DNA of 39,129 nt, from assembly GCA_003533405.1 (NCBI GenBank), contig DQDL01000118.1, positions 12,251-51,379 on the forward strand, given 5' to 3'. The notes under the pieces were generated by a model, which ran no database searches, was not told where the DNA came from, and saw only the letters and a program-made list of their open reading frames with translations. Shown here in pieces: positions 15,901-30,598 of the stretch. The first letter of the stretch is position 1. Every line of letters starts with the position of its first letter. A program made the translations under genes and the position numbers. This DNA is from Clostridiales bacterium. GTDB lineage: Bacteria > Bacillota > Clostridia > Oscillospirales > Oscillospiraceae.

Positions 15901-18263
15901 TCTGGGTCTGGACAAACTACAACTGGCTGACTTCCACCACCAAGGTTACCAACATCAATAGATATGCGTGCGACATTCTCCTCGGCGGACTTACCAACAA
16001 CACCGAAGAAGCAGATAACTTCCTCTTTAACGAAACTCCCACCGGCAAGGATTGCACACTTACCGCAGTAAATGCATCCGACCCCATTGATGCAAAGCTT
16101 CCCGGCACTGCTTGGAAGTGGGAAAGCAGTAATACCAATGTTGCGAAGATTGCATCGTCCGCTGATGAGTTTGCAACTCTTGAGTATAAAGGTACAGGAA
16201 CAACGACCATTACCCTTACAAGAGTAGACGAAAACGGCAATGCCGTTACCAGCGATGTTGACGGAAAGCCCATCACAAGCACCATAACCATTCATGTTAA
16301 CGAAATTCCCACCGTTGATATCAGCTTCAACGGAACAACCGAGGACAACTACTGGCTCAAGGGCGTAACCGCAGGCGATAGCTTCGCGATGAACGGCTTT
16401 GTCAGCAATCAGTCCAATGCAACAATTAATTCGTGGACTTGGGAAGCTTACGGCGAGGACGGAAAGCTCACCAATAAAGTTACCGTTACCCCCGATAATG
16501 TACAGAGCACCACACTGACGCTCAACGATGTCGGCATCAGCTATGTAGTTCTTAAAGTTCACTATACACTGCCTAATGGCGGCGGCGAAGGCGATGTAAC
16601 GACCGCTATTTCCATCAACGCAGAGTACAGCATCGCAACCACCACTAACACAATCATTGACTGCGGACTTCCCGTTAAGCTCGATCTCAACGCAAGCGGC
16701 ATCAGCCGTAAAGCTCCGAGCGTTGAGCTTGTCAAGGGCAGAACCGAGAGCAACGAGTTCGGCACAGCCGATGTTCGCCTCGGCTTCGGTGTTGCAAGTC
16801 TTGATAACGGCACTGTGACCTACACACCGACCGCCATCGCAACCGCAAAAGATACCCTCTACTACTCCGCTGCAGTCGATAACGGCTACAAGTACTCCAA
16901 TGTCAACATCATCCCCGCAAGCTCCATCTACTATGAGGACAGCTTCGTGACCTATAACGGCACCGGCTGGAAGGTCGCAGGCGAATCGAAAACCGGCGTA
17001 TATCAGGACATCAAGGACGATGTATACGGCTACGATGCAGCCTACGGCAGCTACATGACCTACTCCAACGGCAGCGCTCACTATGTGACCGTCAATAACA
17101 AGTACGGCGCAAACCTCCCGACCTATACCGGCGAATACCCCACCGCAACCTTCACCTTCACCGGCACCGGCTTCGCCGTCTACTCCACCTCGGATAAAAC
17201 GGCTGGCTTTGTAAAGGTCAAGTATACCAACAAGGACACCAATGTGACAAAGAAGGTCGTTCTTAACTCGTATGCAGAGGGTGACTATAACCAAACCCCG
17301 ACCATTCAGGCGCTTGGTTTGGACTATGGCACCTACGAAGTGACTATCACGGTCGCATATGATAAGAGCTTTGATGTCGGCAACAAGGGTAGTTACACAT
17401 TCTATCTCGATGCAGTCCGCATCTACGAGCCGCTCAAGGGCAATGACGATGCCAATAAAGCATATGGCGAGGTGGGCGAAGCGAACGCAGAGTACAAGAC
17501 CGTCCGCAGCCTGTTGATAGCCAAAGATGTGTTTGATGCCCTCGATGATGAAACTCCCGGTGCAGTATACATTGAAAGCAAATTGCGCAATGTTTATGAC
17601 GAAGATGGCAATATAACCGAGACGAAGGATGTACTTGGCACGAGTGTTTCGGACTACAAGAACTATGGCCCGAAGAACGAGGTTTACCTCGGCAAGGGCA
17701 ACGGCGTTGCATTCAAGATCGATAACGCAGCACAGCTCACAGATATCCAGCTTGGCATCAAGTGCGCAGGCGCTGCGACTGGCAAGGTTATGATAAACGG
17801 TAATTATATCGATATCACTTCTGCAACCGATATGTACTACAGCATCAAAAAGTACATGACGAATGACACGGTGATCATTGCAAATCCCGACGATGCCATT
17901 ATTTCACTGACCGTTCTTAAGACCACCAAGAACGATGCTCAGGTTCAGGCTGATGTCACCGTTACCTCCGAGCTCGGCAAACTTGCGGCAGAGCAGATCT
18001 TTGCAGCCGTCAAGACCCCCGATCCCGAGCCCGTTGAGCCGACTGTTGAGCCGACTGTTGAGCCGACCGAGGAGCCTCAGCCCAGCAAAGACCCGACACC
18101 GAGCGAAGATCCCGAGCCGACCGTTGAACCCACCGAGGAGCCTCAGCCCAGCGAAGATCCTCAGCCCGATGACGACGATCAAGATCAGGATAATGCACTT
18201 ATGAACATCTTGAAAAAGATCGGCGACTTCTTCAAAAAACTGTTTGGAGGTTGGAAAAAATGA
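12996..18263 (+). CDS. Giant secreted multidomain protein: SGNH/GDSL hydrolase (esterase) domain, several Ig-like (Big_2-type) and beta-sandwich domains, Pro/Glu-rich linker, cationic amphipathic tail
   Basis: ATG at 12996, 9 nt after GGAGG (the track starts at TTG 12975). Signal peptide ...FAGVPFKVLDTEANA. SGNH blocks VIFGDSTVAND, KVGINDILHP and DGIHFTAAG. Big_2-like WMSTDPNVATVSQ and WESSNTNVAKIAS. C-terminus PEPVEPTVEPTVEPTEEPQPS...DDDDQDQD then NALMNILKKIGDFFKKLFGGWKK. Confidence 0.8.
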   Translation: MSKTRRGLSFLLCLVMAFSLFAGVPFKVLDTEANATDTNTNPGNSSKWVTAWHTSMLYLDAASDVNKAVSVLSELNERTFRTVIPMTISGNTVRLTYSNEYAPNGETLKIGEITLAKGDPNDAARWLSSTSVKLKDMNALFKTAIANGQADVANSYYQDSGILRIKPGEIVVSEPIDISALGLNAMDYLSVSTWVCDMNSNYTGFKNGFTGGLIGGETNYLGLALGGSGYNHTEATDLDGVGLIPSVPLSNSNATGDYNVVPFLNTVEVLRESITGVKDTSNAYTTVIFGDSTVANDIPVYLAQNLKSGDIDGVAVTWAAVKGNEVLLNGQDGSGDSNGNIMDEAAISVVDEVKKLSGVKKVILKVGINDILHPQCSDMAANFASRTPDQIAQQIIAGYKYIVEQLHNEGIEVYFYELTPWRADDGTYYSRNSTISAWTGRVDNIRLKVNAWLAKYGADYDTFVTDRKTGSGDGYKGNITLGNQYGTNGYTKAYKTKEVTVSQDKFDRFGYISLESLGTTSAAYAPSTLNPFGEDFTGMTAMKKAYTTDGIHFTAAGQSKLAKITPTSIFYQRQDTYNGAGETVTVEGIYFATKALTVDHNYFICNTDAASIKDGADGSNQSLKGHIVGNPGKASSASDRESDVVSDLESNSVIVQRGTSGAPYIVKKSVADKNEWTLLYIQDMNSYYWKNGNDYLVWYYPGPSLTWGNYFKTGVIDQQPWHAGVSKHWYTFDEITPASNASDNYSVKLWYNGTVTDKYLVFDNSKFNGKFISSKKSGNIALYDNTSKGVNIKLDINKDSANLLNVTTDETVVNAAGGKTTQLQFRLDSQMLDSNSVPTGTDFHDAPKDNNARGPYSQYTFGDNQKIFWMSTDPNVATVSQSAASDLKATYTNGGGEVTFTGNGGTTALVANFFWKEHDGTDYVFDNNVKDGQAQYYSTAEKDAAIANGSRVPSETTEGYHWVEINNGLWVWTNYNWLTSTTKVTNINRYACDILLGGLTNNTEEADNFLFNETPTGKDCTLTAVNASDPIDAKLPGTAWKWESSNTNVAKIASSADEFATLEYKGTGTTTITLTRVDENGNAVTSDVDGKPITSTITIHVNEIPTVDISFNGTTEDNYWLKGVTAGDSFAMNGFVSNQSNATINSWTWEAYGEDGKLTNKVTVTPDNVQSTTLTLNDVGISYVVLKVHYTLPNGGGEGDVTTAISINAEYSIATTTNTIIDCGLPVKLDLNASGISRKAPSVELVKGRTESNEFGTADVRLGFGVASLDNGTVTYTPTAIATAKDTLYYSAAVDNGYKYSNVNIIPASSIYYEDSFVTYNGTGWKVAGESKTGVYQDIKDDVYGYDAAYGSYMTYSNGSAHYVTVNNKYGANLPTYTGEYPTATFTFTGTGFAVYSTSDKTAGFVKVKYTNKDTNVTKKVVLNSYAEGDYNQTPTIQALGLDYGTYEVTITVAYDKSFDVGNKGSYTFYLDAVRIYEPLKGNDDANKAYGEVGEANAEYKTVRSLLIAKDVFDALDDETPGAVYIESKLRNVYDEDGNITETKDVLGTSVSDYKNYGPKNEVYLGKGNGVAFKIDNAAQLTDIQLGIKCAGAATGKVMINGNYIDITSATDMYYSIKKYMTNDTVIIANPDDAIISLTVLKTTKNDAQVQADVTVTSELGKLAAEQIFAAVKTPDPEPVEPTVEPTVEPTEEPQPSKDPTPSEDPEPTVEPTEEPQPSEDPQPDDDDQDQDNALMNILKKIGDFFKKLFGGWKK
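18021..18170 (+). repeat. In-frame tandem/degenerate repeats encoding the P/E/T-rich linker
   Basis: gagccgactgtt occurs twice in tandem. A ~33-nt unit ccgaccgaggagcctcagcccagc(a/g)aaga(c/t) is repeated about 63 nt later. Confidence 0.8.
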
Positions 18264-18514
18264 AAAAAGTATATACTAAACCCGAACTGTTCTACGAAGA
18301 GTATGAGCTGTCTGTTGCAATTGCAGGCAACTGCGGTGCACAATTTAGTGCGTTCAATGTGAATACATCAAGTATAACGACCTGCACATACAGAGATGTT
18401 GACGAATTCATATTCATTCAGGCAAATGCTGCCTGCACAGAGCATCCTGCTTATGATGATGATTTGCTGTGCTATGTGACAGCCACCGAGGGAGCTCTAG
18501 CATTCAGCTCATAA
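18260..18514 (+). CDS. 84-aa Cys-containing peptide; candidate RiPP precursor
   Basis: GGAGG 10 nt upstream. The ATG overlaps the TGA of the upstream gene (ATGA). MKKVYTKPELFYEEYEL... with Cys at residues 25, 42, 59 and 71. Ends ...ALAFSS. No signal peptide. Followed directly by a strong terminator. Confidence 0.6.
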   Translation: MKKVYTKPELFYEEYELSVAIAGNCGAQFSAFNVNTSSITTCTYRDVDEFIFIQANAACTEHPAYDDDLLCYVTATEGALAFSS

Positions 18515-18526
18515 TTCAAAACAAGA

Positions 18527-18556
18527 AACCGGCAGCAAAACGCTGCCGGTTTTTTC
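18527..18556 (+). terminator. Rho-independent terminator/attenuator after the peptide gene
   Basis: Perfect 10-bp stem aaccggcagc / gctgccggtt, 5-nt loop, T6 run. Confidence 0.85.
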
Positions 18557-18605
18557 TGTACAAACAAAATATTATAATGTATAATAGCCGTGCGAGGTGT
18601 TGCAA

Positions 18606-19295
18606 ATGAAAAAGAAAAAGCAGATAATCGCCGCCGTGCTGGTGCTCATCGCCGCCGTCGCAGCGGTGCTGATATTCACCCGAAAAAACGAAACCGAGTC
18701 AAACCCCGAATCAGTCAATGTCGCAGATATCCAAATCGACGCATCCGCAGGCGGCATATCCGTCGTCTCGCTGGAGAACATCTCCGGCATGTATGTCGAG
18801 GACGGCAGCGACGAGGTCATGAGCGGCATTTTCGCTGCGACCTTCCGCAACGACTCAGACAGCGATCTTCAATATGCAAAGCTCGTCCTGACCGTCGGCG
18901 AGGAGGACTATATCTTTGAGCTGTCCACCGTTCCCGCCGGTTCGACCGTCCGTGCGATGGAGATGAACAAGAAAGCGTTTGTATCGTCAAAGGGCGAAGT
19001 GACGCTCAAGCAGGAGAACATTGCATGGTTCGATGAAGCCCCGTCCATGTACAGCAATATGCTCAAAATTATCCAGCGCAATAACGCCATAATCATTGAG
19101 AATATCTCCGGCCAGACCATTACTGCGCCCATCTATGTCTACTACAAAAACTACACCGATGGCATGTACATCGGCGGCATAACCTACCGTGCGGGGACGC
19201 AGGAGAACCTTGCCCCGGGCAAGTCAGTCGCTTTGAGCGCAAAGCACTTTGACCCCGATGCCTCACGGCTCATGTTTGTGACATATGCACATTAA
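18606..19295 (+). CDS. Single-pass membrane protein of unknown function (N-terminal TM, ~200-aa extracytoplasmic domain)
   Basis: MKKKKQIIAAVLVLIAAVAAVLIF TM anchor (the track ORF starts at 18597). No motif I recognise. The 3' end overlaps the next gene by 11 nt. Confidence 0.6.
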   Translation: MKKKKQIIAAVLVLIAAVAAVLIFTRKNETESNPESVNVADIQIDASAGGISVVSLENISGMYVEDGSDEVMSGIFAATFRNDSDSDLQYAKLVLTVGEEDYIFELSTVPAGSTVRAMEMNKKAFVSSKGEVTLKQENIAWFDEAPSMYSNMLKIIQRNNAIIIENISGQTITAPIYVYYKNYTDGMYIGGITYRAGTQENLAPGKSVALSAKHFDPDASRLMFVTYAH

Positions 19296-20097
19296 AACCT
19301 ACGATTTTTCGGGTATTCACCTCGGTATCGAGAGCGAAGAACCGCTTACCGACAATGCCGAGCTGTGCAAGTTTAGTTACAGCGGCACGCCCGATTACAC
19401 GATATCCCTGCACTTTACCGACACCGTGCCCGATACCTCAGACTGTGCCGATTTTTTTGTTAAAACGGCAATACTCGAGGCAAACACGCCGCAGCGCCCG
19501 TTTTCTTGCACCGAGTTTTACGCAGACCACTGCGAAATGCAGGTGCTCGACAGATACGCTGCCGACTTCACGGTCGACTCGGTGCTGCGTCACCTGCCGC
19601 TTAGTCACATGCTGCTGAAATTTGACGCATTTGTGCTGCACGGGGCGTACATTGTCGTAGACGGTGAGGCAATCGTATTCTCCGCACCTAGCGGCACAGG
19701 CAAATCCACGCAGGCTGAGCTGTGGCGAAGGCACCGCAGCGCCGCCGTCATTAATGGCGACAGGGTGCTGGTGCGCAAAAGCGCTGACGGCTTCACCGCA
19801 GGTGGGATATATTTCGCCGGAACATCCGGAATATGCGAAAATGTCACCGCACCGCTGCGTGCGATAATCGTGCTCGGGCAGGCAAAGGAAAACGGCCTGC
19901 ACCGCTGCACGGGCTCGCAGGCGCTGCATTCGCTTTTCGGTCAAAGCGCCTGCTGCAACATTGACGGCGAACCGGTGCGGCTCGTCGGGCTGATATCCGA
20001 ACTCATAAACAGCACCGAAATTCTGAGGCTTGACTGCCTGCCGGATGTGTCGGCGGTCGAGACACTGTCGGATTTCCTCTATGGAGAGAGCAAGTAA
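19285..20097 (+). CDS. HPr-kinase-like P-loop protein (HprK-related / ScmC-like), putative peptide kinase or scaffold
   Basis: 270 aa. LHGAYIVVDGEAIVFSAPSGTGKSTQAELW mirrors the HprK/P C-terminal domain block HG-x-lvdv-x-G-x-GvLi-x-G-x-SG-x-GKS-E-x-AleL. The N-terminal ~110 aa are unassigned. Confidence 0.55.
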   Translation: MHIKTYDFSGIHLGIESEEPLTDNAELCKFSYSGTPDYTISLHFTDTVPDTSDCADFFVKTAILEANTPQRPFSCTEFYADHCEMQVLDRYAADFTVDSVLRHLPLSHMLLKFDAFVLHGAYIVVDGEAIVFSAPSGTGKSTQAELWRRHRSAAVINGDRVLVRKSADGFTAGGIYFAGTSGICENVTAPLRAIIVLGQAKENGLHRCTGSQALHSLFGQSACCNIDGEPVRLVGLISELINSTEILRLDCLPDVSAVETLSDFLYGESK

Positions 20098-21236
20098 TGG
20101 AAAACGAATATGTCGAATCGAGAATAAGCCGCCACCTGCACAGTCGTGCGGCTCGTGTGGGCATTCCGCTGTCCGGCACATTTGAGCTTACGCCCTGCTG
20201 CAATCTTGCATGCAAGATGTGCTATGTGCGCAAGCCGAGAGCGGAGGTCGAGGCCGAGGGCGGACTAATGAGCGCCGAGCAGTGGATCACGCTTGCGCAA
20301 AAATGCCGTGAAAGCGGCATGCTGTACCTGCTGTTGACCGGCGGCGAGCCGCTGACGCACCCGCAGTTTCGTGAAATTTACACCGCCGCAAAGAAGCTGG
20401 GCTTTGTGGTGTCGATAAACACCAACGGCACGCTCATCAACGATGATATGCTGCACTTTTTGGCATCCGACCCACCTGCCAGAGTGAATATGTCGCTGTA
20501 CGGAGCAAGTCGTGAGACCTACAGCGAGCTGTGCGGCGTGCCCGAGGCGTTCGACCGAGCAATGTATGCGCTCAAGGGTATGCGCCGAGAGGGCATAAGG
20601 GTCAAGCTAAATTACAGTGTCACACGGTACAACCGTGGCGACATGGTCGGCATACTCGACACTGCCAAGGAAAACGACTGCAATGTGCAGATAGCAAGCT
20701 ATATGTTCCCGCCGCTTCGGCGTGACGGCTCACAAATCGGCGAAAATGATCGCATGACCGCCGAGGAGGATGCAGCCTTTACTGTAAAAAGCGAGAGGCT
20801 GCGCCTGCCGGCCGAGAAGTTTAAAGAACGCTGCAAGGCACGCATCGCACGCAGCGGCGGCACCATCGACGAGGAGTGCTTAGACGCACCCACGGAGCAT
20901 ATCCGTTGCCGAGCCGGAACCACCGCATTTTGGGTCAACTGGAACGGCGAGATATCGCTGTGCGGCATGATACCCCGCCCATCGGCAAATGTTAAGACCA
21001 CCGGTTTTGCCGAGGCGTGGCAAAGGGTGCGTGAGGACACAGCAAAAATACTCGTGCCGGCAAAGTGCACCGCCTGTCCCGACCGTGAGGTCTGCATGGT
21101 GTGTGCCGCATCCTGCTACTGCGAGACCGGCGGTTTTGAGAAGGCGCCCGAGTATATTTGCCGCAGGACAAGGGCACTTATTAAAGAAAGCGAAAATGCC
21201 ATTGCCGAGGAGAAAGAAAATGAAAACCAACCCTGA
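20097..21236 (+). CDS. Radical SAM enzyme with C-terminal SPASM-type auxiliary Fe-S domain (peptide maturase-like)
   Basis: CNLACKMC (CX3CX2C) near the N-terminus, GGEPL SAM-binding motif, C-terminal Cys clusters CRAGTTAFWVNWNGEISLCG and CTACPDREVCMVCAASCYCETG. The start overlaps the upstream stop (TAATG). Confidence 0.85.
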   Translation: MENEYVESRISRHLHSRAARVGIPLSGTFELTPCCNLACKMCYVRKPRAEVEAEGGLMSAEQWITLAQKCRESGMLYLLLTGGEPLTHPQFREIYTAAKKLGFVVSINTNGTLINDDMLHFLASDPPARVNMSLYGASRETYSELCGVPEAFDRAMYALKGMRREGIRVKLNYSVTRYNRGDMVGILDTAKENDCNVQIASYMFPPLRRDGSQIGENDRMTAEEDAAFTVKSERLRLPAEKFKERCKARIARSGGTIDEECLDAPTEHIRCRAGTTAFWVNWNGEISLCGMIPRPSANVKTTGFAEAWQRVREDTAKILVPAKCTACPDREVCMVCAASCYCETGGFEKAPEYICRRTRALIKESENAIAEEKENENQP

Positions 21237-21483
21237 ATTTATAGCCAGAGACATTGCCGGCGAGCTGGTGCTTGTGCCGGTCGGCACGGCGGCGAAGAGC
21301 TTCGGCGGGCTCGTGACCTGCAACGAGGTCGGTGCGTTCATATGGAAAACGCTCGAAAACGGAGCGACCATGGACGAGCTTGTCGCCGCGATACTCGACG
21401 AGTTTGAGACCGACGAGCAGACCGCACGGAGCGACGCCGAGGAGTTTGTCGCAAAGCTAAAGGAAATAAACGCAGTTATATAA
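21220..21483 (+). CDS. PqqD-family protein (stand-alone RiPP recognition element)
   Basis: 87 aa, MKTNPEFIARDIAGELVLVPVG...LNEVGAFIWKTLENGATMDELVAAILDEF...AEEFVAKLKE, typical PqqD length and pattern. Overlaps the rSAM gene by 17 nt. The track ORF 20989-21483 is an upstream extension. Confidence 0.8.
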   Translation: MKTNPEFIARDIAGELVLVPVGTAAKSFGGLVTCNEVGAFIWKTLENGATMDELVAAILDEFETDEQTARSDAEEFVAKLKEINAVI

Positions 21484-21486
21484 CAG

Positions 21487-21511
21487 AAGCCTCCGGCTCA
21501 GCCGGAGGCTT
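21487..21511. terminator. Hairpin between the convergent PqqD and peptidase genes
   Basis: aagcctccggc-tca-gccggaggctt, a perfect 11-bp stem. The U-tracts are weak on both strands. Confidence 0.55.
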
Positions 21512-21516
21512 ATTAC

Positions 21517-21987
21517 TTATCTATTATAGTATGAGTTGTCACGGTGCAGGACGGTGTACAGCTTTATGAGCCATGGCCTGACGGAGACAAGGTGCCGCCA
21601 CGAACCTGCGTAGAAGCTCCATAGCGCATTGTCCGGCCAAATCTCTTTGCCGTCACGCTCGACATGCGTCACCACGGCGAACACCTGCTCGGGTGCGATT
21701 GGCCCCTCGATGCGCTGCTGGCTGTCGCCGAGCATGTACAGGCCGCTGTCGTCGATTTTGCAGATGCGGTGGAGAATGTACTGCCCGTTAAAGCGCTGGT
21801 AAAACACGATGTCGCCGACACGCAGCTCACGGTCGGGCTTTTTAAAAAAAGCCGTATCCCGTCCGCTGTGCAGGAACGGATACATGCTGTGTCCGCTTAC
21901 CTTGACGCAGACCTCGTGTCCGCTTTCGGCAAGCTCACGCAGCACGGATATGTATTCAAATGTGTCGATCCTGCGCATGGAAAACAC
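21517..21987 (-). CDS. Soluble (TM-less) S26B/SipW-like serine peptidase
   Basis: 156 aa. VSGHSMYPFLHSG...LRVGDIVFY...ILHRICKIDD...YMLGDSQQRIEGP aligns block for block with the neighbouring SipW (SGSMEPTYHVG...VGDPITF...ATHRVVRID...YTKGDANDDPD). No hydrophobic anchor at either end. Confidence 0.65.
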   Translation of the reverse strand: MFSMRRIDTFEYISVLRELAESGHEVCVKVSGHSMYPFLHSGRDTAFFKKPDRELRVGDIVFYQRFNGQYILHRICKIDDSGLYMLGDSQQRIEGPIAPEQVFAVVTHVERDGKEIWPDNALWSFYAGSWRHLVSVRPWLIKLYTVLHRDNSYYNR

Positions 21988-22252: not shown

Positions 22253-22789
22253 GTGCTGAAAATAGCGAGAAATCTTATGAGAAAATCTGTAAAGAAAACA
22301 TGGAATGTTATATCCACTGTGCTGGTGGCGATCGTGGTCATCATCGCCCTGCTGCTTGTCGGCGCAAGGGTGTTCGGACTTCAGGTCTATGCGGTGCTGT
22401 CCGGCTCCATGGAGCCGACATATCATGTGGGTTCGATAATATATGTCAAGTCCGTCGACCCGAGTGAGATAAAGGTCGGCGACCCGATAACCTTCGTCAT
22501 GAACGAGCAGCTTACCGTTGCAACGCACCGTGTCGTGCGCATCGATGCGGAAAACAGTGCGTTTTACACCAAGGGCGACGCTAACGACGACCCAGATGCC
22601 GCACCCGTGCATTTTAACAACCTTCTGGGCAAGCCCGTGTTCACCATCCCGTACCTTGGCTACATATCAAGCTATGTGCAGTCACCCCCGGGCATCTACA
22701 TTGCCGTTGGTGTAGGCGTGCTGCTGCTGGCACTTGCGTTTTTGCCGGACATGCTTGACGGCGACAAAAAGGAGAAGCAGAAAAATTAG
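22253..22789 (+). CDS. sipW: Signal peptidase I, SipW (ER/archaeal) type
   Basis: SGSMEP (Ser nucleophile), THRVV (His base rather than Lys), GDAND box, N- and C-terminal TM segments. The track start is GTG 22253; the ATG at 22277 (MRKSVKK) is an equally plausible start. Confidence 0.85.
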   Translation: MLKIARNLMRKSVKKTWNVISTVLVAIVVIIALLLVGARVFGLQVYAVLSGSMEPTYHVGSIIYVKSVDPSEIKVGDPITFVMNEQLTVATHRVVRIDAENSAFYTKGDANDDPDAAPVHFNNLLGKPVFTIPYLGYISSYVQSPPGIYIAVGVGVLLLALAFLPDMLDGDKKEKQKN

Positions 22790-22858
22790 TTCAATATGGG
22801 GCTAAGCCCTTTTTGAAGAATATGTAGGAATTTTGTTTGATCGAAAGGAGACAATCAA

Positions 22859-23461
22859 ATGAAGAAAAAACTCACAACCGTATTGGCGATCGTTTTGGTC
22901 GTCGCCCTGTCCGTGGCAGGTACCTATGCTTACCTGACTGCACAAACCGACACCGTCACAAACACCTTTACCGCAGCCGGTCTTGCATCAAGCTTCAGCC
23001 TTGACGAAAGCAAGGCAAATCAGCAGCCCGACGGCTCCTACACTCTTGATGTTGCAACTAGAGTTCAGGAGAACCAGTACTCTGTCGTTCCCAAGGTGAA
23101 CCTTGCTAAGGATCCTACCGTACATGTAACGCTTGAGGCAAATGTCGGCGCATATGTTTTCCTCGCAGTTGACGACAACCTCGGCGACGGCCTGACCGCA
23201 ACCATCGACAGAGGCAATTGGACTGCACTCAACACCACCTACACCGACGCACAAGGCGTAGCTTGGACCATGTACTACAAGCAGCTCGAAGGCAGCGCAA
23301 CTCCCGCACAGGTCGACATCAATGTTCTTACTGGCCAGCAGATCGTTGTCGGTGATACCGTCGCAGAAGACTGCGGCAACATCGTGTTCAATGCATACCT
23401 GACCCAGTCCGCAGGCTTCACCGACGCACTTGATGCATGGAACAACTCCTGGGGCAAGTAA
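22859..23461 (+). CDS. TasA/CalY-like protein with SipW-dependent-type signal peptide (candidate major fibre subunit)
   Basis: AAAGGAG RBS. N-terminus MKKKLTTVLAIVLVVALSVAGTYAYLTAQTDTVTNTFTAAG parallels TasA/CalY (..GGGTFAFFSDKEVSNNTFAAGTLDL). 200 aa. Followed by a stem-loop. Confidence 0.7.
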   Translation: MKKKLTTVLAIVLVVALSVAGTYAYLTAQTDTVTNTFTAAGLASSFSLDESKANQQPDGSYTLDVATRVQENQYSVVPKVNLAKDPTVHVTLEANVGAYVFLAVDDNLGDGLTATIDRGNWTALNTTYTDAQGVAWTMYYKQLEGSATPAQVDINVLTGQQIVVGDTVAEDCGNIVFNAYLTQSAGFTDALDAWNNSWGK

Positions 23462-23506
23462 TTTTGGCTTGCGTCAGTAAGTAACTGAAAATACACAGAA
23501 ACCCAG

Positions 23507-23533
23507 CCCTGCGGCCGTATTTTGACCGCAGGG
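23507..23533 (+). terminator. Intra-operon stem-loop after the first TasA-like gene (possible attenuator or mRNA stabiliser)
   Basis: ccctgcgg ... ccgcaggg, an 8-bp GC-rich stem with an 11-nt loop and no clear U-tract. Confidence 0.4.
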
Positions 23534-23615
23534 TGTCGGTGGATTTAGAACAATGGGCGCTCCACCGATATTTGCCCGCAATACGCAGTCAATTCTGCGC
23601 ATGGGAGGTTTAAAC

Positions 23616-24185
23616 TTGAAAAATACAAAGACAAAAATTTTGGTTCTGGCTTTGGCGGTCTGCCTTGTTGCCGTTTGCGCAATGGGTACCGCGGCTTACT
23701 TCACCGACCGCAGCACAGCGACGAATGTCATCACGACAGGCGGCGTTGATATCGAGCTGATCGAGACCGCCGAAAAGGACGGCGAGCTCGTCCCGTTCGA
23801 GGATATTTCCGGCGTCATGCCCGGCGATGTAGTATCTAAGATCGTTGAAGTCAAGAATACCGGCAAAAACGATGCCTATGTCCGTGTAAGCGTCGAGAAG
23901 GCGATCACCCTGGCCGAGGGCCTTGAGGGCAAGGTCGACCTGTCCCTCGTCAAGCTGAACATCAACACCGAGAAGTGGACCGAGGCAGACGGATATTACT
24001 ACTACAACGGGGTTCTCAAGCCCGGTGAGACCACCGCACCGCTGTTCACCACCGTCACCTTTGACGGCACGATGGATAATCTCTATCAGAACTGCACCAC
24101 TACCATCAGTGTTGCCGCACAGGCAACTCAGTCGGCCAATAATGGCACGAGCGCACTGACCGCAACCGGTTGGCCGGAGGCATAA
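23616..24185 (+). CDS. TasA/camelysin (Peptidase_M73-like) family protein with SipW-type signal peptide
   Basis: GGGAGG, 7 nt, then TTG at 23616 (the track ORF starts at 23553). MKNTKTKILVLALAVCLVAVCAMGTAAYFTDRSTATNVITTGGVDIEL, then GVMPGDVVSKIVEVKNTGKNDAYVRV as in TasA/CalY. Confidence 0.7.
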   Translation: MKNTKTKILVLALAVCLVAVCAMGTAAYFTDRSTATNVITTGGVDIELIETAEKDGELVPFEDISGVMPGDVVSKIVEVKNTGKNDAYVRVSVEKAITLAEGLEGKVDLSLVKLNINTEKWTEADGYYYYNGVLKPGETTAPLFTTVTFDGTMDNLYQNCTTTISVAAQATQSANNGTSALTATGWPEA

Positions 24186-24200
24186 GAAAGGGGCAAGCGC

Positions 24201-27095
24201 ATGAAGAAAAAGCTATTAGCCCTCGTCCTCGCCGTCATGATGACGGTCGGCTGCTTCGCCGGTCTCGGCGCAGCGGTCGGGCAGGACGCTGATTTTGCCG
24301 CACTGAGTGTGGCAGATCAGTATGCCGCCATTATGGCAGCGGGCAGCGAAGCCGATGCGCAGGCATTGTTTGATACACTCGATGCCGAGCAGCAGGCAGC
24401 TTTGACGGCTTATGCAGACCAGCAGAAGGATACGGACACCGCTAAGGAGACCGACCCCATCCCCGCTGTCAACTACACCAATGTTGCTCCGCTCGTGACC
24501 GCAAATAAGGTGTCGCAGCCTGCAAGGGCACGCCTTATGAGCGCAAGCTCGACGGCACGCCCCATCGAAAAGGGCAAGACCGTCGACGGCCTTGTCATTA
24601 ATAAGACCGCAACGGCAAACGACGACGGCACTTACAACATCAAGCTCGAAGCCTACACCACCGGCTCCGTGAGCACCACCGAATCCACCAAGCCCACGGA
24701 TATCGTTCTCGTCCTCGACCAGTCCGGCTCGATGGATGAGGACATGAAAAGCTACACCTACACTGAGGCGTACCCCGGCAATAACCATAACGGTTCGTAC
24801 TATGTAAAGTCTAGGGACAGCTATGTCAGAGTGTCATGGTGCTCCGATTGCAGAGCATGGACTGACGGCTGCACTGACGGCTGGTTTTGGCAGCACTATT
24901 CCGGCACCAAGTATACGCCGAAAACTTCAGCATCCGACACGGCAAGCGGCCATGTTCAGTTCTATTCCCGTGGCTCTGAAACCAAGGTTAAGCGCCTGAC
25001 GGCACTTAAAAAAGCGGTTACCAGCTTTGCCGATGCCGTTGCCGAAAAGGCAAAGGGAGCTGATGGCGTTCTTGGCACAGATGACGATGTTAACCATCGT
25101 ATCGCTGTTGTAGGATTTGCATCCGGCAACCCGTCGAATAGGCTTTATTACAATTCGGAGATTTTTGTCGGAGCAAATCAGTACCAGTATAATAGACTTA
25201 CTTCGCAGAACTATTTGGATGCAATGCAGAGCATGGACACCAAGACAGGCGTTGATAATATCGGTAAGTCTATTAATGCGCTTGACGCAGAAGGTGCAAC
25301 ATATACCAACCTTGGTATTGAGATGGCAAATGGTATATTTGCAACCAATCCCGTAGAAAACAATTCACGCAACCGTATTGTGGTCGTGTTCACCGACGGT
25401 CAGCCCGGCCGCAGCGGCTATGACTCCAGCATTGCAAATGCTGCCATCAATCAGGCTAACACTACAAAGAACACCTACAATGCAACTGTATACACCGTCG
25501 GTATTTTTGAAAATGCCGATGCAACCTCTGCCGGCAACCAAAACGGTACAAACGCAGAGAAGTCCAATTGGTTTATGCAGAAGCTGTCCAGCAATAACGG
25601 CACTCCTCAGGATCCCAGCTACTATCTGTCTGCTTCCGATTCTGATACCCTCAGCACTATATTCCAGAAGATAAGCAATCAGATCAGCGAAAGCAAGATC
25701 GACCTCGGCAGTCAGACCGTTATCAAGGACACCGTCACGAAGTACTTTGATATGCCGACCGACGCAAGCAAGGTCAGCGTAAAGAGCTACGACTGCACCG
25801 GCGTTGCAGATGGCAAGCCCACATGGAGCGAGACCGGCACCGTTATAAACAATGCCGTTACGCTCGACCCGAAGGATAACTCCGTCAATGTCACGGGCTT
25901 TGACTTTAACGCAAACTATGTCACCGAAAAGGGTCGTGATGAGAACGACCCCAAGAAGGAAGGCGACTTCCACGGCAGAAAGCTCGTTATCGAGTTCACC
26001 GTCACCGCAAAGGACGGCTTTGTCGGCGGCAACAGCGTGCCCACCAACGGTTCGGACTCCGGCGTCTATGACAAGGACGGCAAAGAGGTCGCAACCTTCG
26101 ATGTCCCGCAGGTCAATGTACCCATCGAGCCCGAGCTCACCGTCAACGACAAGGTCATTTACGAGGGCGGCTCTGCCAATGTGAGCGGCCTGTACAATGC
26201 GGCCGACACCTCATCTTGGAAGTATGACTTTGTAAATGTAAGCTATGAGGTCAAAAACGGCAATACCGCAGTCAGCGGCAGCGTCAGCCCCGCAGACTGC
26301 ACCGACTACACCGTGAAGGCCACCTTCAGCCCGAAGTACGACGGCAAGAACGCCGACGGCAAGATCAACGACGATGTTACCGTCGATGGCACCGCCACAG
26401 TCCATGTTCTCAAGCCGACCGTCACCGTGACTGCCAACGATGTTTGGAAGTATTACGGCGAGGACTACAATACGCCCGACGGCAGCACCGTCACGGGCTC
26501 GGTCACTTGGGCAGACGAGCACAGCCATGATGTAAGCGGCATCACCGTTATCGGCTCTGCACCTTACGGCACGGACGATCTTCAGTACAGCTACGACCAC
26601 GGTCAGTTTGTCGTTCCCAATACCGACACGACCATCGCTGTGGTCGCCAAGGTCGGCGGCGTGGAAAAGGCAAGCACGAGCTATGTCGTTCACCCCAAGT
26701 TCTGCACCCTGACCATCAACAAGGAAGTTGCAAAGCTCTACGGCGATAACGACAGCTTTATCTTCAATGTCGTCGGCGAGGGCAACATCAAGTACGAGGC
26801 CAAGGTCGTCATAAACGGCGCAGGCTCCGCAACGCTCACCGGCCTCCCCGTCGGCAGCTACACCGTCACCGAGGACATCGGCTGGTCTTGGAGATACACC
26901 TGCGACAGCAGCACCAAGTCGACCGTCCTGAGCTCCGCTAAGGATAACGACAGCGTGACTATCACCAACAAGCTGGATGACAACAAGTATCTCGGCGACG
27001 AGACCTATGTTATCAACAAGTGCGAAAGCAGGACGATAACGAAGGTAACTTCGACCGTCATCCGGCAGGCCATCGAGTATATACTCGGTAGATAA
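24201..27095 (+). CDS. Large secreted von Willebrand factor A (vWA) domain protein with C-terminal Cna-B/SpaA-like Ig domains; adhesin-like
   Basis: Sec signal peptide. MIDAS DIVLVLDQSGSMDE and VVFTDGQPG. C-terminal LTINKEV...TLTGLPVGSYTVTEDIGWSWRYT is typical of pilin/adhesin stalk domains. No LPXTG-like signal at the C-terminus. Confidence 0.8.
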   Translation: MKKKLLALVLAVMMTVGCFAGLGAAVGQDADFAALSVADQYAAIMAAGSEADAQALFDTLDAEQQAALTAYADQQKDTDTAKETDPIPAVNYTNVAPLVTANKVSQPARARLMSASSTARPIEKGKTVDGLVINKTATANDDGTYNIKLEAYTTGSVSTTESTKPTDIVLVLDQSGSMDEDMKSYTYTEAYPGNNHNGSYYVKSRDSYVRVSWCSDCRAWTDGCTDGWFWQHYSGTKYTPKTSASDTASGHVQFYSRGSETKVKRLTALKKAVTSFADAVAEKAKGADGVLGTDDDVNHRIAVVGFASGNPSNRLYYNSEIFVGANQYQYNRLTSQNYLDAMQSMDTKTGVDNIGKSINALDAEGATYTNLGIEMANGIFATNPVENNSRNRIVVVFTDGQPGRSGYDSSIANAAINQANTTKNTYNATVYTVGIFENADATSAGNQNGTNAEKSNWFMQKLSSNNGTPQDPSYYLSASDSDTLSTIFQKISNQISESKIDLGSQTVIKDTVTKYFDMPTDASKVSVKSYDCTGVADGKPTWSETGTVINNAVTLDPKDNSVNVTGFDFNANYVTEKGRDENDPKKEGDFHGRKLVIEFTVTAKDGFVGGNSVPTNGSDSGVYDKDGKEVATFDVPQVNVPIEPELTVNDKVIYEGGSANVSGLYNAADTSSWKYDFVNVSYEVKNGNTAVSGSVSPADCTDYTVKATFSPKYDGKNADGKINDDVTVDGTATVHVLKPTVTVTANDVWKYYGEDYNTPDGSTVTGSVTWADEHSHDVSGITVIGSAPYGTDDLQYSYDHGQFVVPNTDTTIAVVAKVGGVEKASTSYVVHPKFCTLTINKEVAKLYGDNDSFIFNVVGEGNIKYEAKVVINGAGSATLTGLPVGSYTVTEDIGWSWRYTCDSSTKSTVLSSAKDNDSVTITNKLDDNKYLGDETYVINKCESRTITKVTSTVIRQAIEYILGR

Positions 27096-27109
27096 GGAGG
27101 GGCTGTAAT

Positions 27110-27664
27110 ATGAAATTATTTTCTTCACGCAGCTCCCACGCTGCAAATAACGGCGGCGCAAAGAAGCTGTCCGCCGCAGCAATTGCAATTATCCTCGTGG
27201 TCGTCATGGCGATAGGCGGCACGGTCGCTCTCCTCATGGACAGCACCGACAGCGTCACCAATAAGTTCGCCCCCGCTTCCTCAGGCATCACCATCGAGGA
27301 GGAGGTCAAGGAGAACTGCAAGACCGAGATCGCAGTCAAAAACACCGGCGATACCGGCGTGTATGTCCGTGTGTCGCTCGTTGCCAACTACTACGACGAA
27401 AACGGCAATATCACCGGCGGCGCTGCGGTCCCCGACTTTACGCTCAACTCCGATAAGTGGTTTGTGGGCAACGATGGCTACTATTACTACAAGCAGCCCG
27501 TTGCGGCAGGCGATGTGACCGACAACCTGCTCATCGGCAAGATGCAGCTTGAGGACAATATGCAGGTCACAGTGCTTGCACAGAGCATACAGGCAAGCCC
27601 CACGAGCGTGGTTCACGACAAATGGGGCGTGACCGTCAATTCCGACGGAACGCTTGCGAAGTAA
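27110..27664 (+). CDS. TasA/CalY-like protein with SipW-type signal peptide (minor subunit candidate)
   Basis: AAGGAGG RBS. ...IAIILVVVMAIGGTVALLMDSTDSVTNKFAPASSGITIEE, then VKNTGDTGVYVRVSL, the same blocks as the other two TasA-like genes. Confidence 0.65.
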   Translation: MKLFSSRSSHAANNGGAKKLSAAAIAIILVVVMAIGGTVALLMDSTDSVTNKFAPASSGITIEEEVKENCKTEIAVKNTGDTGVYVRVSLVANYYDENGNITGGAAVPDFTLNSDKWFVGNDGYYYYKQPVAAGDVTDNLLIGKMQLEDNMQVTVLAQSIQASPTSVVHDKWGVTVNSDGTLAK

Positions 27665-27674
27665 GGAGGCTTGA

Positions 27675-28319
27675 ATGATGAAAAAAAGATTTTTAGCTAT
27701 CCTTATGGTTCTGGCGCTGTGCCTGAGCATCGCTCCGGCAGCGTTTGCAGACGCTTCCGTGAGCTACAAGGGCAGTGCGGAGAAATTCGTGTTTGCCCCC
27801 GGCAGCGAGTATTCGCCGACCGACATGTTTGAGAGCTTCAAGGGCGTTATGCCCGGCGATACCCTCACTCAGCAGATCGAGGTCAGAAACGATGTAAAAA
27901 ATGATGTCAAAATCAAGCTTTACATGCGTTCGCTCGGCGCAAACGAGGGCTCGGAGGAGTTCCTCAAGCAGATGACGCTCGGCGTCAAGGCTGCCGACGG
28001 CAGCGAGCTGTTCGCAGCTCCCGCCGATGAGACCGCCCAGCTTACCGATTGGGTGTGCCTCGGCACCTTCTATTCCGGCGCAAAGACCACCCTCGATGTG
28101 ACGCTCAATGTTCCTGTCGAGATGGGCAACGACTTTGCCGAGCAGGTCGGCAGCCTTGACTGGGAATTTGCAGTCGAGGAGCTGCCCGTTGAGCCTACCG
28201 ATCCGGTCGGCCCCAAGACCGGCGACGACACCCCCGTTGCACTGTACGCAGCCATCTGCGCAGTATGTGCCGGTGCGGTAGTGTTCCTGATCGCAACAAG
28301 GAAAAAGAAAGAGCAGTAA
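27675..28319 (+). CDS. Cell-wall-sorted TasA-fold-like protein (Sec signal peptide, GPKTG sorting signal)
   Basis: Signal peptide ...[25 protein letters not shown] parallels GVMPGDVVSKIVEVKNTG of the 23616 gene. C-terminus [38 protein letters not shown] is motif plus TM plus basic tail. Confidence 0.7.
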
Positions 28320-28330
28320 ACCGATAAAGC

Positions 28331-28367
28331 AAAACTGGCACCGTTAAAAGCGGTGTCAGTTTTCTTT
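28331..28367 (+). terminator. Rho-independent terminator of the sipW operon
   Basis: aaaactggcaccg-ttaaaag-cggtgtcagtttt followed by cTTTT. Confidence 0.7.
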
Positions 28368-28539
28368 TAAGCAGCTGCTTGGCAACAGATTGTAAAACAA
28401 TTAGATAAAATTCATGCAAAATTCGCAAATGCTTACAATATTTTCACAGTTTGCGCCTTCCATTTTGCCGAAATAACACTTATAATATCCTCAGAAGTAT
28501 AACCAACACACGAAAGATAAATGATAAGGAGAATGTGCT

Positions 28540-28764
28540 ATGTATTTCGACCAGATGTTCTACAACCAGCAGTATGTAAACCCAAATTATTACGCTCAGC
28601 AGAGGGAACATATCCGCCAATTACAGCAGACATTGAATGTGCAGAAAGCAGAAAAAGCTACCCGTGATTTATGCGAAGCAGTTAGAAACTTAGACGAGTA
28701 CCATCAGCAGCAAGCGTTCCTAGCGTGCCTTGGTGTTATAGCGCTAGAGTTCGGGTGGAACTAA
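28540..28764 (+). CDS. Hypothetical 74-aa protein (Q/Y/N-rich N-terminus) in an AT-rich insert
   Basis: AAGGAGA RBS 7 nt upstream. Low-GC codon usage, unlike the flanking genes. No recognisable motif. Confidence 0.45.
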   Translation: MYFDQMFYNQQYVNPNYYAQQREHIRQLQQTLNVQKAEKATRDLCEAVRNLDEYHQQQAFLACLGVIALEFGWN

Positions 28765-28837
28765 AGTTCTTTGAACCAGAGATATAAAATGCATGAGCTA
28801 AGGATATGTATGTGTTGCATATAAAGGATGTGAAGAA

Positions 28838-29764
28838 TTGGTGAGTGATAATAGTGTTGGCTCAATGAAGGATTTCCTTTTTAGATACAGAGCGTTTAAA
28901 CCATATAATATACAAGCTCTTGCTGAGGGAAAGCTGTTCTTTTCAACACCAAGCGAGTTCAATGATCCGTTTGATTCTGTGGTGTATGTAGATCAGCAAA
29001 AACTGTATGGTTCAATTGAATATGCGTTGAGGGCTAATTTAGATAGTTATTTAGATATTAAGCATATTAATCCAAAAGGTAAAGCACTAAAAAAGGTTCT
29101 AGCTCTCAGTGATAAAAGCGTTTTTGATTTACCGCAGAGCTCAGAATTGATACAGGGGTTTATGGAACATGTGCATAATACTTCAAATAAATTCAAGCAA
29201 CAAATCAACGCTAACTCAAAAGTAGTATGTTTTTCAGAAGATTATTTATCCCCACTTATGTGGGCTCACTACGCAGATGATCATAAGGGGTTTGCCCTTG
29301 GATATGCAAAATCCAATTTATTAACTGCACCGATTTACAACGAAATTGGTGAGAAAATAGGGAACAAGATGATATTGGACAGAGTGAATTACGCAAAAAC
29401 TACTCCTGATAGTGGACAGTTGTTTTATGATATTTTCCCTGAAATTATGAAGGAGAAAGCAATTCACGATACATCAAAATTTTATAAGCAGGTTCTATAT
29501 AATAAAACGAGTGAATGGTGTTATGAAAAAGAATGGAGATTGTGTTCAGTACAGGATACGCTTGAAACAAATAATCCAGCGAGGTATATGCTTGTTGAGC
29601 CTTGTATGATGTTTCTTGGAGCAAAAATGCCAAGTCAAAACCGGGAGACGATGGTGAAAATTGCAAGAGAAAAAGAAATGCCCGTTTTTGAAGTATGGGC
29701 AAATGACAAAGAGGCTGAGTTCAAGCTAAATTTCTGCCTTATCTATCCAAAACAATATGACTAG
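28838..29764 (+). CDS. DUF2971-like protein
   Basis: LFRYRAF...LAEGKLFFSTPSEFNDPFDS and MWAHYADDHKGFALGY resemble the DUF2971 signature (F-x-N-D-P-x-E/D; W-x-x-Y-A). The track start is TTG 28838; GTG 28841 or ATG 28865 are alternatives. About 38% GC by eye. Confidence 0.55.
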   Translation: MVSDNSVGSMKDFLFRYRAFKPYNIQALAEGKLFFSTPSEFNDPFDSVVYVDQQKLYGSIEYALRANLDSYLDIKHINPKGKALKKVLALSDKSVFDLPQSSELIQGFMEHVHNTSNKFKQQINANSKVVCFSEDYLSPLMWAHYADDHKGFALGYAKSNLLTAPIYNEIGEKIGNKMILDRVNYAKTTPDSGQLFYDIFPEIMKEKAIHDTSKFYKQVLYNKTSEWCYEKEWRLCSVQDTLETNNPARYMLVEPCMMFLGAKMPSQNRETMVKIAREKEMPVFEVWANDKEAEFKLNFCLIYPKQYD

Positions 29765-29805
29765 CCTCCACCGAAGACTACAATGCAGATAGTGAAAAGC
29801 TTTAC

Positions 29806-29835
29806 AAAAACCCGTTGCAATGCAGCGGGTTTTTG
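29806..29835 (+). terminator. Rho-independent terminator after the DUF2971 gene
   Basis: aaaaacccgttgca-a-tgcagcgggttttt. Confidence 0.65.
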
Positions 29836-29875: not shown

Positions 29876-30598
29876 ATGCGGAAGGTTATCAGAACGATCG
29901 TGCTCGTTGTGTGCATTGCGGCGTTTTGCATTGCGGCATACAAGCTGTATGACTACTATTCGGAAATGAAAAAGGGCGAGGAAACGGTCGATAAGCTCAA
30001 GGATATAGGTGTGACCGAGATTGAGCAGGGCGAAAAAGCGCCGATAAGCGTCGATTTTGCGGCGCTGCAGGCGGAAAATCCCGACATCATTGCATGGCTG
30101 TATAGCGAAGGCACGCCGATAAACTACCCCGTTGTGCAGTCCGATGACAACCAGTATTACCTGCGCAGACTCACCGACGGCAGCTACAACACTAACGGCA
30201 CACTGTTCATGGACTTCCGTGATGCCGCCGACCTCAGCGGCTTCAACACCGTCATTTACGGCCACCGCATGAAGTCAAAGGCCATGTTCGGCACGCTGCC
30301 GAGCTACCTCGAGCAGGATTATTACAATGAGCATCCGGTGATGTACCTGCTCACGCCCGAGAAAAGCTACAGGCTCGATATCGTGTCAAGCTTCCTGTTG
30401 CGCTCGGACTCGGATATCTACGCTCCGATAAATACAAGCGAGGCGAAAAAGGCATTTTTGGACAAGATAACGACGCAATCGGCATTCAAAACGAATGTCG
30501 AGTTCGGAATCGACGACCGCTTTGTGCTGCTGTCGACCTGCTCATACGATTTTGAAAATGCCCGCCAGTTGGTCATTGCAAAGCTCACCGAGCTATAA
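29876..30598 (+). CDS. srtB: Class B sortase
   Basis: ATG at 29876 after GAGGG (the track ORF 29783 runs through the upstream terminator). N-terminal TM. IAWLYSEGTPINYPVVQSDDNQYYLRR, VIYGHRM (His), LLSTCSY (Cys), RQLVIAKL (Arg): SrtB-type blocks. Confidence 0.85.
   Translation: MRKVIRTIVLVVCIAAFCIAAYKLYDYYSEMKKGEETVDKLKDIGVTEIEQGEKAPISVDFAALQAENPDIIAWLYSEGTPINYPVVQSDDNQYYLRRLTDGSYNTNGTLFMDFRDAADLSGFNTVIYGHRMKSKAMFGTLPSYLEQDYYNEHPVMYLLTPEKSYRLDIVSSFLLRSDSDIYAPINTSEAKKAFLDKITTQSAFKTNVEFGIDDRFVLLSTCSYDFENARQLVIAKLTEL

Follow-up and report, generated by a model that had tools for sequence, protein, structure and literature searches.

The window analyzed here is a 39,129-nucleotide stretch of a Clostridiales bacterium genome (contig DQDL01000118.1, positions 12,251 to 51,379 of the forward strand). 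At 22253-28319 it carries sipW followed by five genes, whose products we call P2 to P6 in gene order, and this locus is a Bsa-type, SipW-dependent surface-fiber operon of gut Clostridia. Its parts list is already known. What is new, from a comparison of 60 genomes, is a C-terminal tail common to the large adhesin-like proteins of such loci, a pair of proteins of which one is predicted to be donor-only and the other acceptor-only, and the covariation of the tail with P5. We consider it reasonably probable that the products form a donor-strand-exchange fiber that starts from the adhesin tail and stops at a sortase-anchored P6, the contacts between subunits being deduced from sequence; the tail hypothesis is testable but unproven. 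The features on which the argument draws are the following.

22253..22789, + strand: sipW, archaeal/endoplasmic reticulum (ER)-type signal peptidase I (TIGR02228, 114.9 bits against a cutoff of 51.85)
22859..23461, + strand: P2, SipW-type subunit of 200 amino acids (aa), putative donor strand YLTAQTDTVTNTF, triad N35/E50/K84
23616..24185, + strand: P3, 189-aa BsaA-family subunit, TTG start behind GGGAGG, triad N37/E50/K75
24201..27095, + strand: P4, 964-aa adhesin-like protein (VWA_2, E 2e-9; VWA, E 7e-7)
24717..24731, + strand: metal ion-dependent adhesion site (MIDAS) motif of P4, D-Q-S-G-S, aa 173-177, complete with T368 and D399
26709..26972, + strand: prealbumin-like DUF5979 domain of P4, aa 837-924 (Pfam, 28.4 bits against 25; LPVGSYTVTE...WSWRY...VTITNK)
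26985..27023, + strand: tail motif of P4, K-Y-L-G-D-E-T-Y-V-I-N-K-C, candidate C-terminal donor-strand mimic
27110..27664, + strand: P5, 184-aa SipW-type subunit, BsaB2-like, N51/E64/K71
27675..28319, + strand: P6, sorted BsaB1-like protein (AFA|D signal peptide; TIGR01167, 17 against 15.9)
28209..28223, + strand: sortase motif of P6, G-P-K-T-G, then D, a hydrophobic segment, and RKKKEQ
29876..30598, + strand: srtB, class B sortase (TIGR03064, 195.8 against 153.75)

All six open reading frames (ORFs) were confirmed, and they form one tightly coupled operon. An initial annotation, made from the DNA letters, had described six + strand genes that include a SipW, a vWA protein with a MIDAS motif and no sorting signal, and a sorted protein with an ordinary Sec signal peptide, and it had proposed that the parts work together. 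All of this stands; a scan of the whole window for sorting signals was negative for P4 and found only the one in P6. The annotation had also taken the combination to be undescribed, a claim that fails because the bsa locus of Clostridium perfringens holds the same parts (PMC7395162, PMC11580942).

Obana et al. (2020) defined the C. perfringens sipW-bsaABCRSD operon, whose BsaA is a SipW-dependent polymer resistant to sodium dodecyl sulfate (SDS) (PMC7395162). By mutagenesis, BsaA was found to polymerize by donor-strand exchange with an E56-dependent N35-K74 isopeptide bond as the lock (Kivimaki 2025, PMC11580942). The same authors described BsaC as a vWA protein whose secretion is aided by type IV pilus proteins, noted that BsaA-family genes often neighbor LPxTG, SpaA-domain, signal-peptidase, and sortase genes, and speculated that SrtB anchors BsaA fibers via a sorted BsaB homolog (PMC11580942). 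We recovered a C. perfringens locus (L088) by back-translating the published BsaC antibody peptide and scanning metagenome contigs; the numbering of its BsaA gives V33, N35, F37, E56, and K74 exactly. The gene order there is srtB, then sipW-bsaA-bsaB1(sorted)-bsaB2-bsaC(vWA)-bsaRS.

By BLASTP, P3 matches BsaA (32% identity over 193 aa, E 4e-24), P5 matches BsaB2 (30%, E 1e-15), and P6 matches the sorted BsaB1 (26% over 168 aa, E 5e-11). The SipW proteins of the two loci are 36% identical (E 6e-27) and the SrtB proteins 31% (E 1e-26). P4 matches BsaC by BLASTP in the vWA domain only (E 2e-3), and the C-terminal tail motif is common to both, being carried in BsaC by the tail KYFYDNKEKINDF. The similarity of P2 to BsaA is limited to the N-terminal 41 aa. 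BsaA residues N35/E56/K74 align to N37/E50/K75 of P3 and to N35/E50/K84 of P2. The window therefore holds SipW, a BsaA-family subunit, the N-E-K triad (with the bond itself predicted), an unsorted vWA protein, and the pair that most C. perfringens strains have, namely a BsaB-like protein with a sorting signal and a neighboring class B sortase. It is the same kit as the bsa locus, in another gene order and with one extra subunit class. As in bsa, a hairpin or terminator follows the first subunit gene. The adhesin gene, however, lies before P5 and P6, whereas in C. perfringens it is last; the adhesin is 964 aa long with pilin-like stalk domains, against 618 aa for BsaC; srtB is downstream on the same strand, whereas there it is upstream and divergent; and no bsaR/bsaS two-component genes adjoin the operon among the flanking window genes examined. 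By itself, then, the operon is ordinary, because it is a relative of a published system.

A genome scan that used a 12-sequence alignment as query, with one genome per species, gave 80 loci in Oscillospiraceae, Christensenellales, Lachnospiraceae, and relatives. Gene content and order were counted in the 40 species-level loci with full flanks. The initial annotation had suggested a synteny survey in Clostridia, and the operon composition is indeed kept: SipW, P5, exactly one P6, and a large protein are present in 40/40 loci. The order SipW, subunits, large protein, P5, P6 is likewise kept in 40/40, with P5 always between the large protein and P6, and exactly one large protein lies between the P3 ortholog and P5 in 38/40. 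The number of SipW-type subunits per locus runs from 3 to 8 and is most often 5, the window with three being the minimal set. The operon version of the window species recurs in many metagenome assemblies. Cultured bacteria that have the operon include Laedolimicola ammoniilytica (L045), Brotocaccenecus cirricatena CLA-AA-H272 (L047), and Pseudoflavonifractor sp. MSJ-30 (L073).

The three small SipW-type subunits differ in how readily they are recognized. P3 exceeds the cutoffs of the BsaA-family model TIGR04090 (63.3 against 60), of the SipW-type signal model TIGR04088 (34.2 against 19), and, in its N-terminal part only, of PF12389 (Peptidase_M73, TasA/camelysin; 28.1 against 22.5). Its family comprises 5662 representative 50%-identity clusters at E<=1e-3, and N37, E50, and K75 are 100% conserved in it. 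For P2 the sole curated-model match is TIGR04088 (22.1 against 19), PF12389 giving 15.7, under the gathering score of 22.5. The P2 family profile nevertheless matches that of the P3 family with 99.7% probability (E 3e-25), and N35, E50, and K84 are each at least 95% conserved among 107 P2-like proteins. We therefore read P2 as an extra, divergent subunit of the BsaA/TasA superfamily, as its profile and triad indicate. P5 scores 43.6 bits with TIGR04090, under the cutoff of 60, and its family profile matches the P3 family at 99.7% and BsaB2 at 99.2%; it is a candidate adaptor for the adhesin tail. A PF12389 search gave no match for P5 or P6, and no significant Protein Data Bank (PDB) sequence match was obtained for P4, for any of the four small proteins, or for the family profiles of P3 and P6. 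The claim of three TasA-like subunits is thus borne out for P3 by PF12389 and TIGR04090 and for P2 and P5 by the 99.7% profile link, although both of the latter fall under the family cutoffs. The shared N-terminal motif that had been proposed for them is an approximate consensus, which no single protein fits exactly. The spacing from the aromatic residue to the Asn of the donor strand is 9 in P3 and 10 in P2 (Y-to-N).

P4 consists of a signal peptide, a helical N-region, a vWA domain with a long insertion, an immunoglobulin (Ig)-like stalk, the DUF5979 domain, and the C-terminal tail. Its MIDAS motif is invariant across 30 homologs, and a weak match to a GBS104-like Ig domain (E 0.009) falls under the cutoff. 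The AlphaFold model was unusable, with a mean predicted local distance difference test (pLDDT) of 43, because the homologs used were 87-100% identical. The window P4 tail reads KYLGDETYVINKC, with N939 as its Asn, and is followed by 23 lineage-specific residues.

Large proteins at the same operon position range from 287 to 2460 aa (63 proteins), and their modules vary, including VWA, Flg_new (Listeria-Bacteroides repeats), MucBP, and DUF7601. A sorting signal is found at 0/63 of their C-termini. What the 63 aligned C-termini share is a module made of a DUF5979/SpaA-like domain (LPxGxYTVTE...WSWRY...VTFTN) and a short tail, W/Y-L-x-G-x5-6-N-x-F. DUF5979 or SpaA matches were found in 7/10 scanned large proteins of other loci, the domain boundary according to Pfam precedes the tail, and none of the NCBIfam models covers the tail. 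We expressed the tail as the regular expression [YW][LFI]x[DGNS]x5-6Nx[FIYLVC] within the last 45 aa, which fits 48/63 large proteins against 6/1867 other ORFs. N-termini of SipW-type subunits fit the expression too, the aromatic residue and the Asn being again 9 or 10 apart, and no P6 protein matches it. Moreover, a score matrix derived solely from donor strands, when applied to C-termini, gave the tails a median of -4.2 against -17.9 for background C-termini (p 6e-32), and it placed the BsaC tail at the 99.5th percentile of background. These results suggest that the tail mimics the donor strand of the subunits.

Other readings of these sequences were tried and rejected. The WxL family is built on a large double-WxL domain, whereas the W-L-x-G of the large proteins lies within a tail of about 20 aa, so the tail is not a WxL cell-wall-binding domain. 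Nor is it a SipW cleavage site, small residues being absent at -1 and -3. P4 as a lipoprotein was likewise dismissed, as the Cys of MTVGC is retained only in the closest relatives.

P6 would stand at the opposite end of the fiber. Its profile matches BsaB1 at 99.0% and the P3 family at 97.1%. P6 lacks the donor Asn and has Gln in the acceptor-Lys column; BsaB1 is likewise without the Asn and the Lys. None of the NCBIfam models covers the P6 family, and a profile of sequences from further species brought up homologs beyond its own. AlphaFold models mature P6 as a beta-sandwich of eight strands (pLDDT 78, predicted template modeling score 0.71) for which Foldseek gave weak, generic beta-sandwich matches that include FimG with a donor-strand peptide. 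We base the putative TasA-like fold of P6 on the profile comparison because these structural matches are weak.

A hydrophobic segment and basic tail are present in 61/61 complete P6 orthologs, preceded by xPxTG in 27 (with the forms PPQTG, PPKTG, and SPKTG), by [IL]xTGQ in 30, and by another variant in 4. The SrtB of Clostridioides difficile cleaves motifs of the PPQTG/PPKTG/SPKTG type, and clostridial SrtB substrates have been defined by (S/P)PxTG about 17-45 aa from the C-terminus, a hydrophobic segment, a basic tail, and an N-terminal signal peptide (PMC4155245). P6 fits this pattern as a predicted substrate, except that its GPKTGD has Gly as the first residue instead of S/P. About half of the P6 orthologs (L029, L035, L037, L042, L045, L047, and others) are longer, about 400-520 aa, owing to an additional stretch of some 200 aa, and their terminal sorting motif is another one, L-I-Q-T-G-Q-L-N-W-P. 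This motif resembles the NVQTG of C. difficile CbpA, which was not cleaved by SrtB in vitro, and these proteins may depend on another sortase or be anchored by another route. Within the very abundant gut species of the window, P6 is 95-100% identical among the best 120 homologs, whereas P4 goes down to 87%, a difference that fits faster evolution of an exposed adhesin.

Some class B-like sortases polymerize streptococcal pili, and the presence of a class B sortase beside the operon, together with large-protein stalks that resemble sortase-pilus domains (GBS104-like Ig, SpaA, 'pilus ancillary protein 1'), could be taken to mean that SrtB joins the P6 motif to a Lys of a subunit or of the adhesin to make a true sortase pilus. 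We regard this as highly improbable. Only one protein has a sorting signal, the sortase is not in the neighborhood of 34/40 loci, BsaA ladders form without SrtB, and the characterized clostridial SrtB is a wall-anchoring enzyme (PMC4155245). In the window itself, no other sortase was found among the ORFs scanned against Pfam.

The assembly that we favor extends the published BsaA and TasA mechanisms. Subunits would be exported by Sec, and their SipW-type signal, still uncleaved, would keep them in the membrane. Once free, the N-terminal strand of one subunit would enter the incomplete beta-sandwich of the next by donor-strand exchange, and would be locked there by an Asn-Lys isopeptide bond with Glu as catalyst; the triad is present in P2 and P3, and in P5 the Lys is shifted by one. 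P4, having no groove and no sorting signal, would act as a donor-only initiator whose Asn-bearing tail occupies an adaptor's groove, that of P5 being the likeliest, and may be covalently locked there. From this start, N-strands released by SipW would lengthen the chain. The published BsaA model places growth at the membrane-proximal end, and P4, since it starts the chain, would end at the distal tip. P6, with a predicted groove, no donor Asn, and no acceptor Lys, would take the last donor strand and end growth; tethered by its C-terminal sorting signal instead of a SipW signal, it would be moved to the cell wall by the neighboring class B sortase. Each locus would thus supply both ends of a linear polymer, through a single donor-only and a single acceptor-only protein. 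The vWA tip role, a guess in the initial annotation, gains indirect support from the donor-strand-like tail and from the P5 covariation described next, short of proof.

The tail lacks its Asn in six loci (L042, L051, L056, L063, L060, and L065), and the loss of Lys or Glu from P5 is confined to exactly these six, with 56/56 of the others intact (Fisher 1.6e-8, uncorrected for phylogeny). In L042, L051, and L056 the acceptor Lys of P5 is replaced by Ser, with Glu also changed to Gln in L056; in L063 the Lys region is deleted; and in L060 and L065 Glu is changed to Gly beside a 5-aa deletion. In contrast, every scored P3 ortholog keeps N/E/K, and these columns are 100% conserved in P3-like paralogs.

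Several observations weigh against the proposed assembly. The six covarying loci belong to one clade (members L045 and L059 of which keep both Asn and Lys), and 4/5 of the P2-like proteins that lack the donor Asn sit in these same six loci. Since the Asn of the P2-like protein is lost too while P3-type proteins are intact, the tail, P5, and the P2-like protein evolve as a unit distinct from the P3 type, and the covariation may stem from an entire sub-complex having been lost and not from direct bonding of the tail to P5. The P5 acceptor Lys is one position off the BsaA column. When scored with the donor-strand matrix, the window P4 tail gets no higher than the 95th percentile of background; it carries Cys at the position that is Phe elsewhere and runs on into the 23-aa extension. 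Stretches from inside the large proteins have fairly high matrix scores as well. For P6, the Foldseek search gave no match at E<=1e-3 and left TasA outside the top 50, the best TM-score being 0.42, to the archaeal bundling pilin 7ueg, and with no acceptor Lys in P6, the wall-proximal link would not be covalent. A srtB gene lies within 10 kb of the operon in only 6/40 loci. In C. perfringens strain 13, srtB adjoins the bsa operon but is dispensable, the mutant having no biofilm phenotype, and BsaA polymerizes without BsaB, BsaC, or SrtB (PMC7395162).

The joint loss of isopeptide residues from the tail, P5, and the P2-like protein, with the P3 type intact, suggests two sub-modules and raises the possibility that the adhesin docks on the anchor: the P4 tail would fill the groove of P6, or of a P5-P6 pair, for display at the wall, and the P2/P3 polymer would be a separate product. 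P4, P5, and P6 are always adjacent and tightly coupled, and P6 has a predicted groove-type fold without a donor Asn, as docking would lead one to expect. However, P6 has no acceptor Lys although the tail Asn is nearly invariant, and in most genomes P5 still has a donor strand with its Asn, so that a further partner downstream is implied. Docking would also leave the free polymer end unexplained, and we think it improbable.

The ability of BsaA to polymerize by itself, which extends to Escherichia coli, bears on another account, in which P2, P3, and P5 make a matrix fiber and the remaining proteins are independent passengers, P4 free or loosely bound and P6 an ordinary anchored protein, not physically joined. 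BsaC has been recovered as a free protein of about 70 kDa, bsaB and bsaC mutants merely weaken the pellicle, and the contacts between the parts here are all inferred. The strain in question is atypical, however: BsaB of strain 13 is a recombinant without the BsaB2 N-terminal half and the sorting signal, so that a sorted subunit is missing, and BsaC was found free in the supernatant (PMC11580942). By analogy, recombinant BsaB and free BsaC would fit the tail-initiated, P6-terminated fiber as well. Moreover, the large protein, P5, and P6 co-occur in strict order in 40/40 loci, adhesins with unrelated domains have one C-terminal module and no sorting signal, the tail covaries with P5, and P6 falls, by profile comparison, into the fold superfamily of the subunits. 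On this balance independent passengers seem to us unlikely, if less so than docking on the anchor.

The donor-strand-exchange fiber begun by P4 and ended by P6 can be set beside four known systems. TasA filaments of Bacillus subtilis assemble by N-terminal donor-strand exchange from SipW-processed subunits (Bohning 2022, PMC9674648; Roske 2023, PMC10151520), and TapA, which has a complete Ig fold, starts them by donating a terminus that mimics the TasA strand (Roske 2023, PMC10151520). This is the initiator role proposed here for the P4 tail. The TapA mimic, in contrast, is N-terminal, and TapA is not an adhesin; the tapA-sipW-tasA operon has no vWA protein, sorted subunit, or sortase, and TasA lacks the N-E-K triad and the isopeptide lock (PMC11580942).

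Sortase pili carry vWA tip adhesins of the RrgA, GBS104, and SpaC types, which P4 resembles in having a vWA/MIDAS domain with inserted arms on an Ig-like or prealbumin-like stalk. The comparison with class C sortase pili in the initial annotation holds for this resemblance of adhesin domains, whereas a class C sortase and other LPXTG signals were not found. Unlike in those pili, the window adhesin has no LPXTG, the shaft subunits are TasA/BsaA-like and not Cna-B pilins, and joining is proposed to occur by strand insertion, not by transpeptidation.

Chaperone-usher pili (Fim/Pap) are built by donor-strand exchange, with the tip adhesin first, then adaptors, and a terminator subunit, PapH, that ends growth and anchors. 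The proposed assembly logic is the same, and FimG with its donor-strand peptide is among the weak Foldseek matches of P6. These Gram-negative pili differ in envelope and show no detectable sequence relationship to the window proteins; the window system has no chaperone or usher, and a signal peptidase is the proposed gatekeeper and a sortase the anchor. Archaeal bundling pili, AbpX, and threads have TasA-like beta-sandwich subunits with donor strands and, in some, isopeptide bonds. They are structures of the archaeal envelope, and the matches to them were non-significant, both that of the P6 model to 7ueg and that of the P3-family profile to AbpX (E 0.03, the best PDB sequence match).

A more far-reaching proposal, which we put forward tentatively and hold to be possible, though less likely than not, is that gut Clostridia and C. 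perfringens have a third kind of Gram-positive pilus. In it the tail of a modular adhesin (with vWA, InlB-repeat, MucBP, or other modules) would be isopeptide-locked to P5/BsaB2, growth would proceed tip-first under SipW and be ended by a sortase-fixed P6/BsaB1, and the tail would serve as a portable tag that replaces LPXTG.

Three further features concern transcription and the 3' boundary of the operon.

23506..23534, + strand: GC-rich hairpin in the P2-P3 spacer (dG -21.7 kcal/mol, z -3.45), without a U tract
28331..28367, + strand: intrinsic terminator closing the operon, 3' of P6 (dG -22.8 kcal/mol, z -5.3), then UUUUCUUUU
28335-29809: 1.47-kb insertion of low GC content (0.38) between P6 and srtB, with a 74-aa ORF and a DUF2971 gene

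P3, P4, P5, and P6 are separated by spacers of 10-15 nucleotides with good ribosome-binding sites, and co-transcription of sipW, P2, P3, P4, P5, and P6 is strongly supported. Gene callers place the sipW start at ATG 22277. The P3 start had been put at 23553; TTG 23616, with the ribosome-binding site GGGAGG upstream, is most likely the true one. The stem-loop previously noted at 23507-23533 is real and lies at 23506-23534, but it is not a canonical terminator because it lacks a U tract. In the related species L005 the stem is kept and the loop changed, and no Rfam family matched. The hairpin is a candidate attenuator or mRNA-stability element; the predicted terminator after bsaA yields a sipW-bsaA transcript plus read-through (PMC7395162). 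That P2 is the major subunit, as had been suggested, is doubtful: it occupies the position of bsaA with the hairpin after it, but P3 is the BsaA ortholog by sequence.

Downstream of P6 the order is terminator, DUF2971 insertion, srtB, and an aminotransferase gene. The srtB gene is not in the operon: the terminator and the 1.47-kb insertion lie between P6 and srtB, which is a separate transcription unit. In the related contig L002 the insertion is absent and srtB comes directly after P6. The insertion is placed exactly at the native terminator and carries its own.

Some observations on P4 and its surroundings stand apart from the assembly. The residues past the tail motif, aa 942-964 (27024-27092, ESRTITKVTSTVIRQAIEYILGR), some 21-23 in number, occur only in the window lineage and in L005, and part of them is predicted to be helical in the low-confidence model. 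In the N-terminal region, aa 90-97 (24468-24491) form the motif VNYTNVAP. In L037, L047, L049, L050, L057, L071, and L074, among others, this motif (..VNYTNVAPFGEPVTGG) forms the end of a stand-alone 211-342-aa protein that has a SipW-like signal and whose gene lies just upstream of the large adhesin (at 10574-11257 in L047 and L074). Its presence both inside P4 and at the end of separate proteins suggests a module that is either fused to the adhesin or encoded by a separate gene.

Immediately upstream of sipW, at 18251-21987, lies a maturation cassette of the type that acts on ribosomally synthesized and post-translationally modified peptides (RiPPs). It comprises an 87-aa Cys-containing ORF (18251-18514) that could be the precursor, a 232-aa membrane-anchored protein, a ScmC/HPr-kinase-like protein, a radical SAM enzyme, a PqqD protein, and an S24/S26-type peptidase (21517-21987, minus strand). 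The radical SAM and peptidase genes adjoin sipW in L005 too and were not detected in the other related loci. Farther upstream, 12975-18263 encodes a giant secreted protein of 1762 aa with no Pfam match, whose L002 homolog has weak SGNH-lipase and Ig matches; its C-terminus is a Pro/Glu-rich linker with a short amphipathic basic tail, not a sorting signal.

The Bsa-type operon is very widespread among gut genomes, and what vWA protein, BsaB proteins, and sortase each do in the bsa system can now be framed as specific yes-or-no questions. If the proposed assembly is true, the tail would be a simple, portable means of displaying large proteins on a covalently locked fiber, which would bear on the adhesion of gut commensals and possibly on protein engineering.

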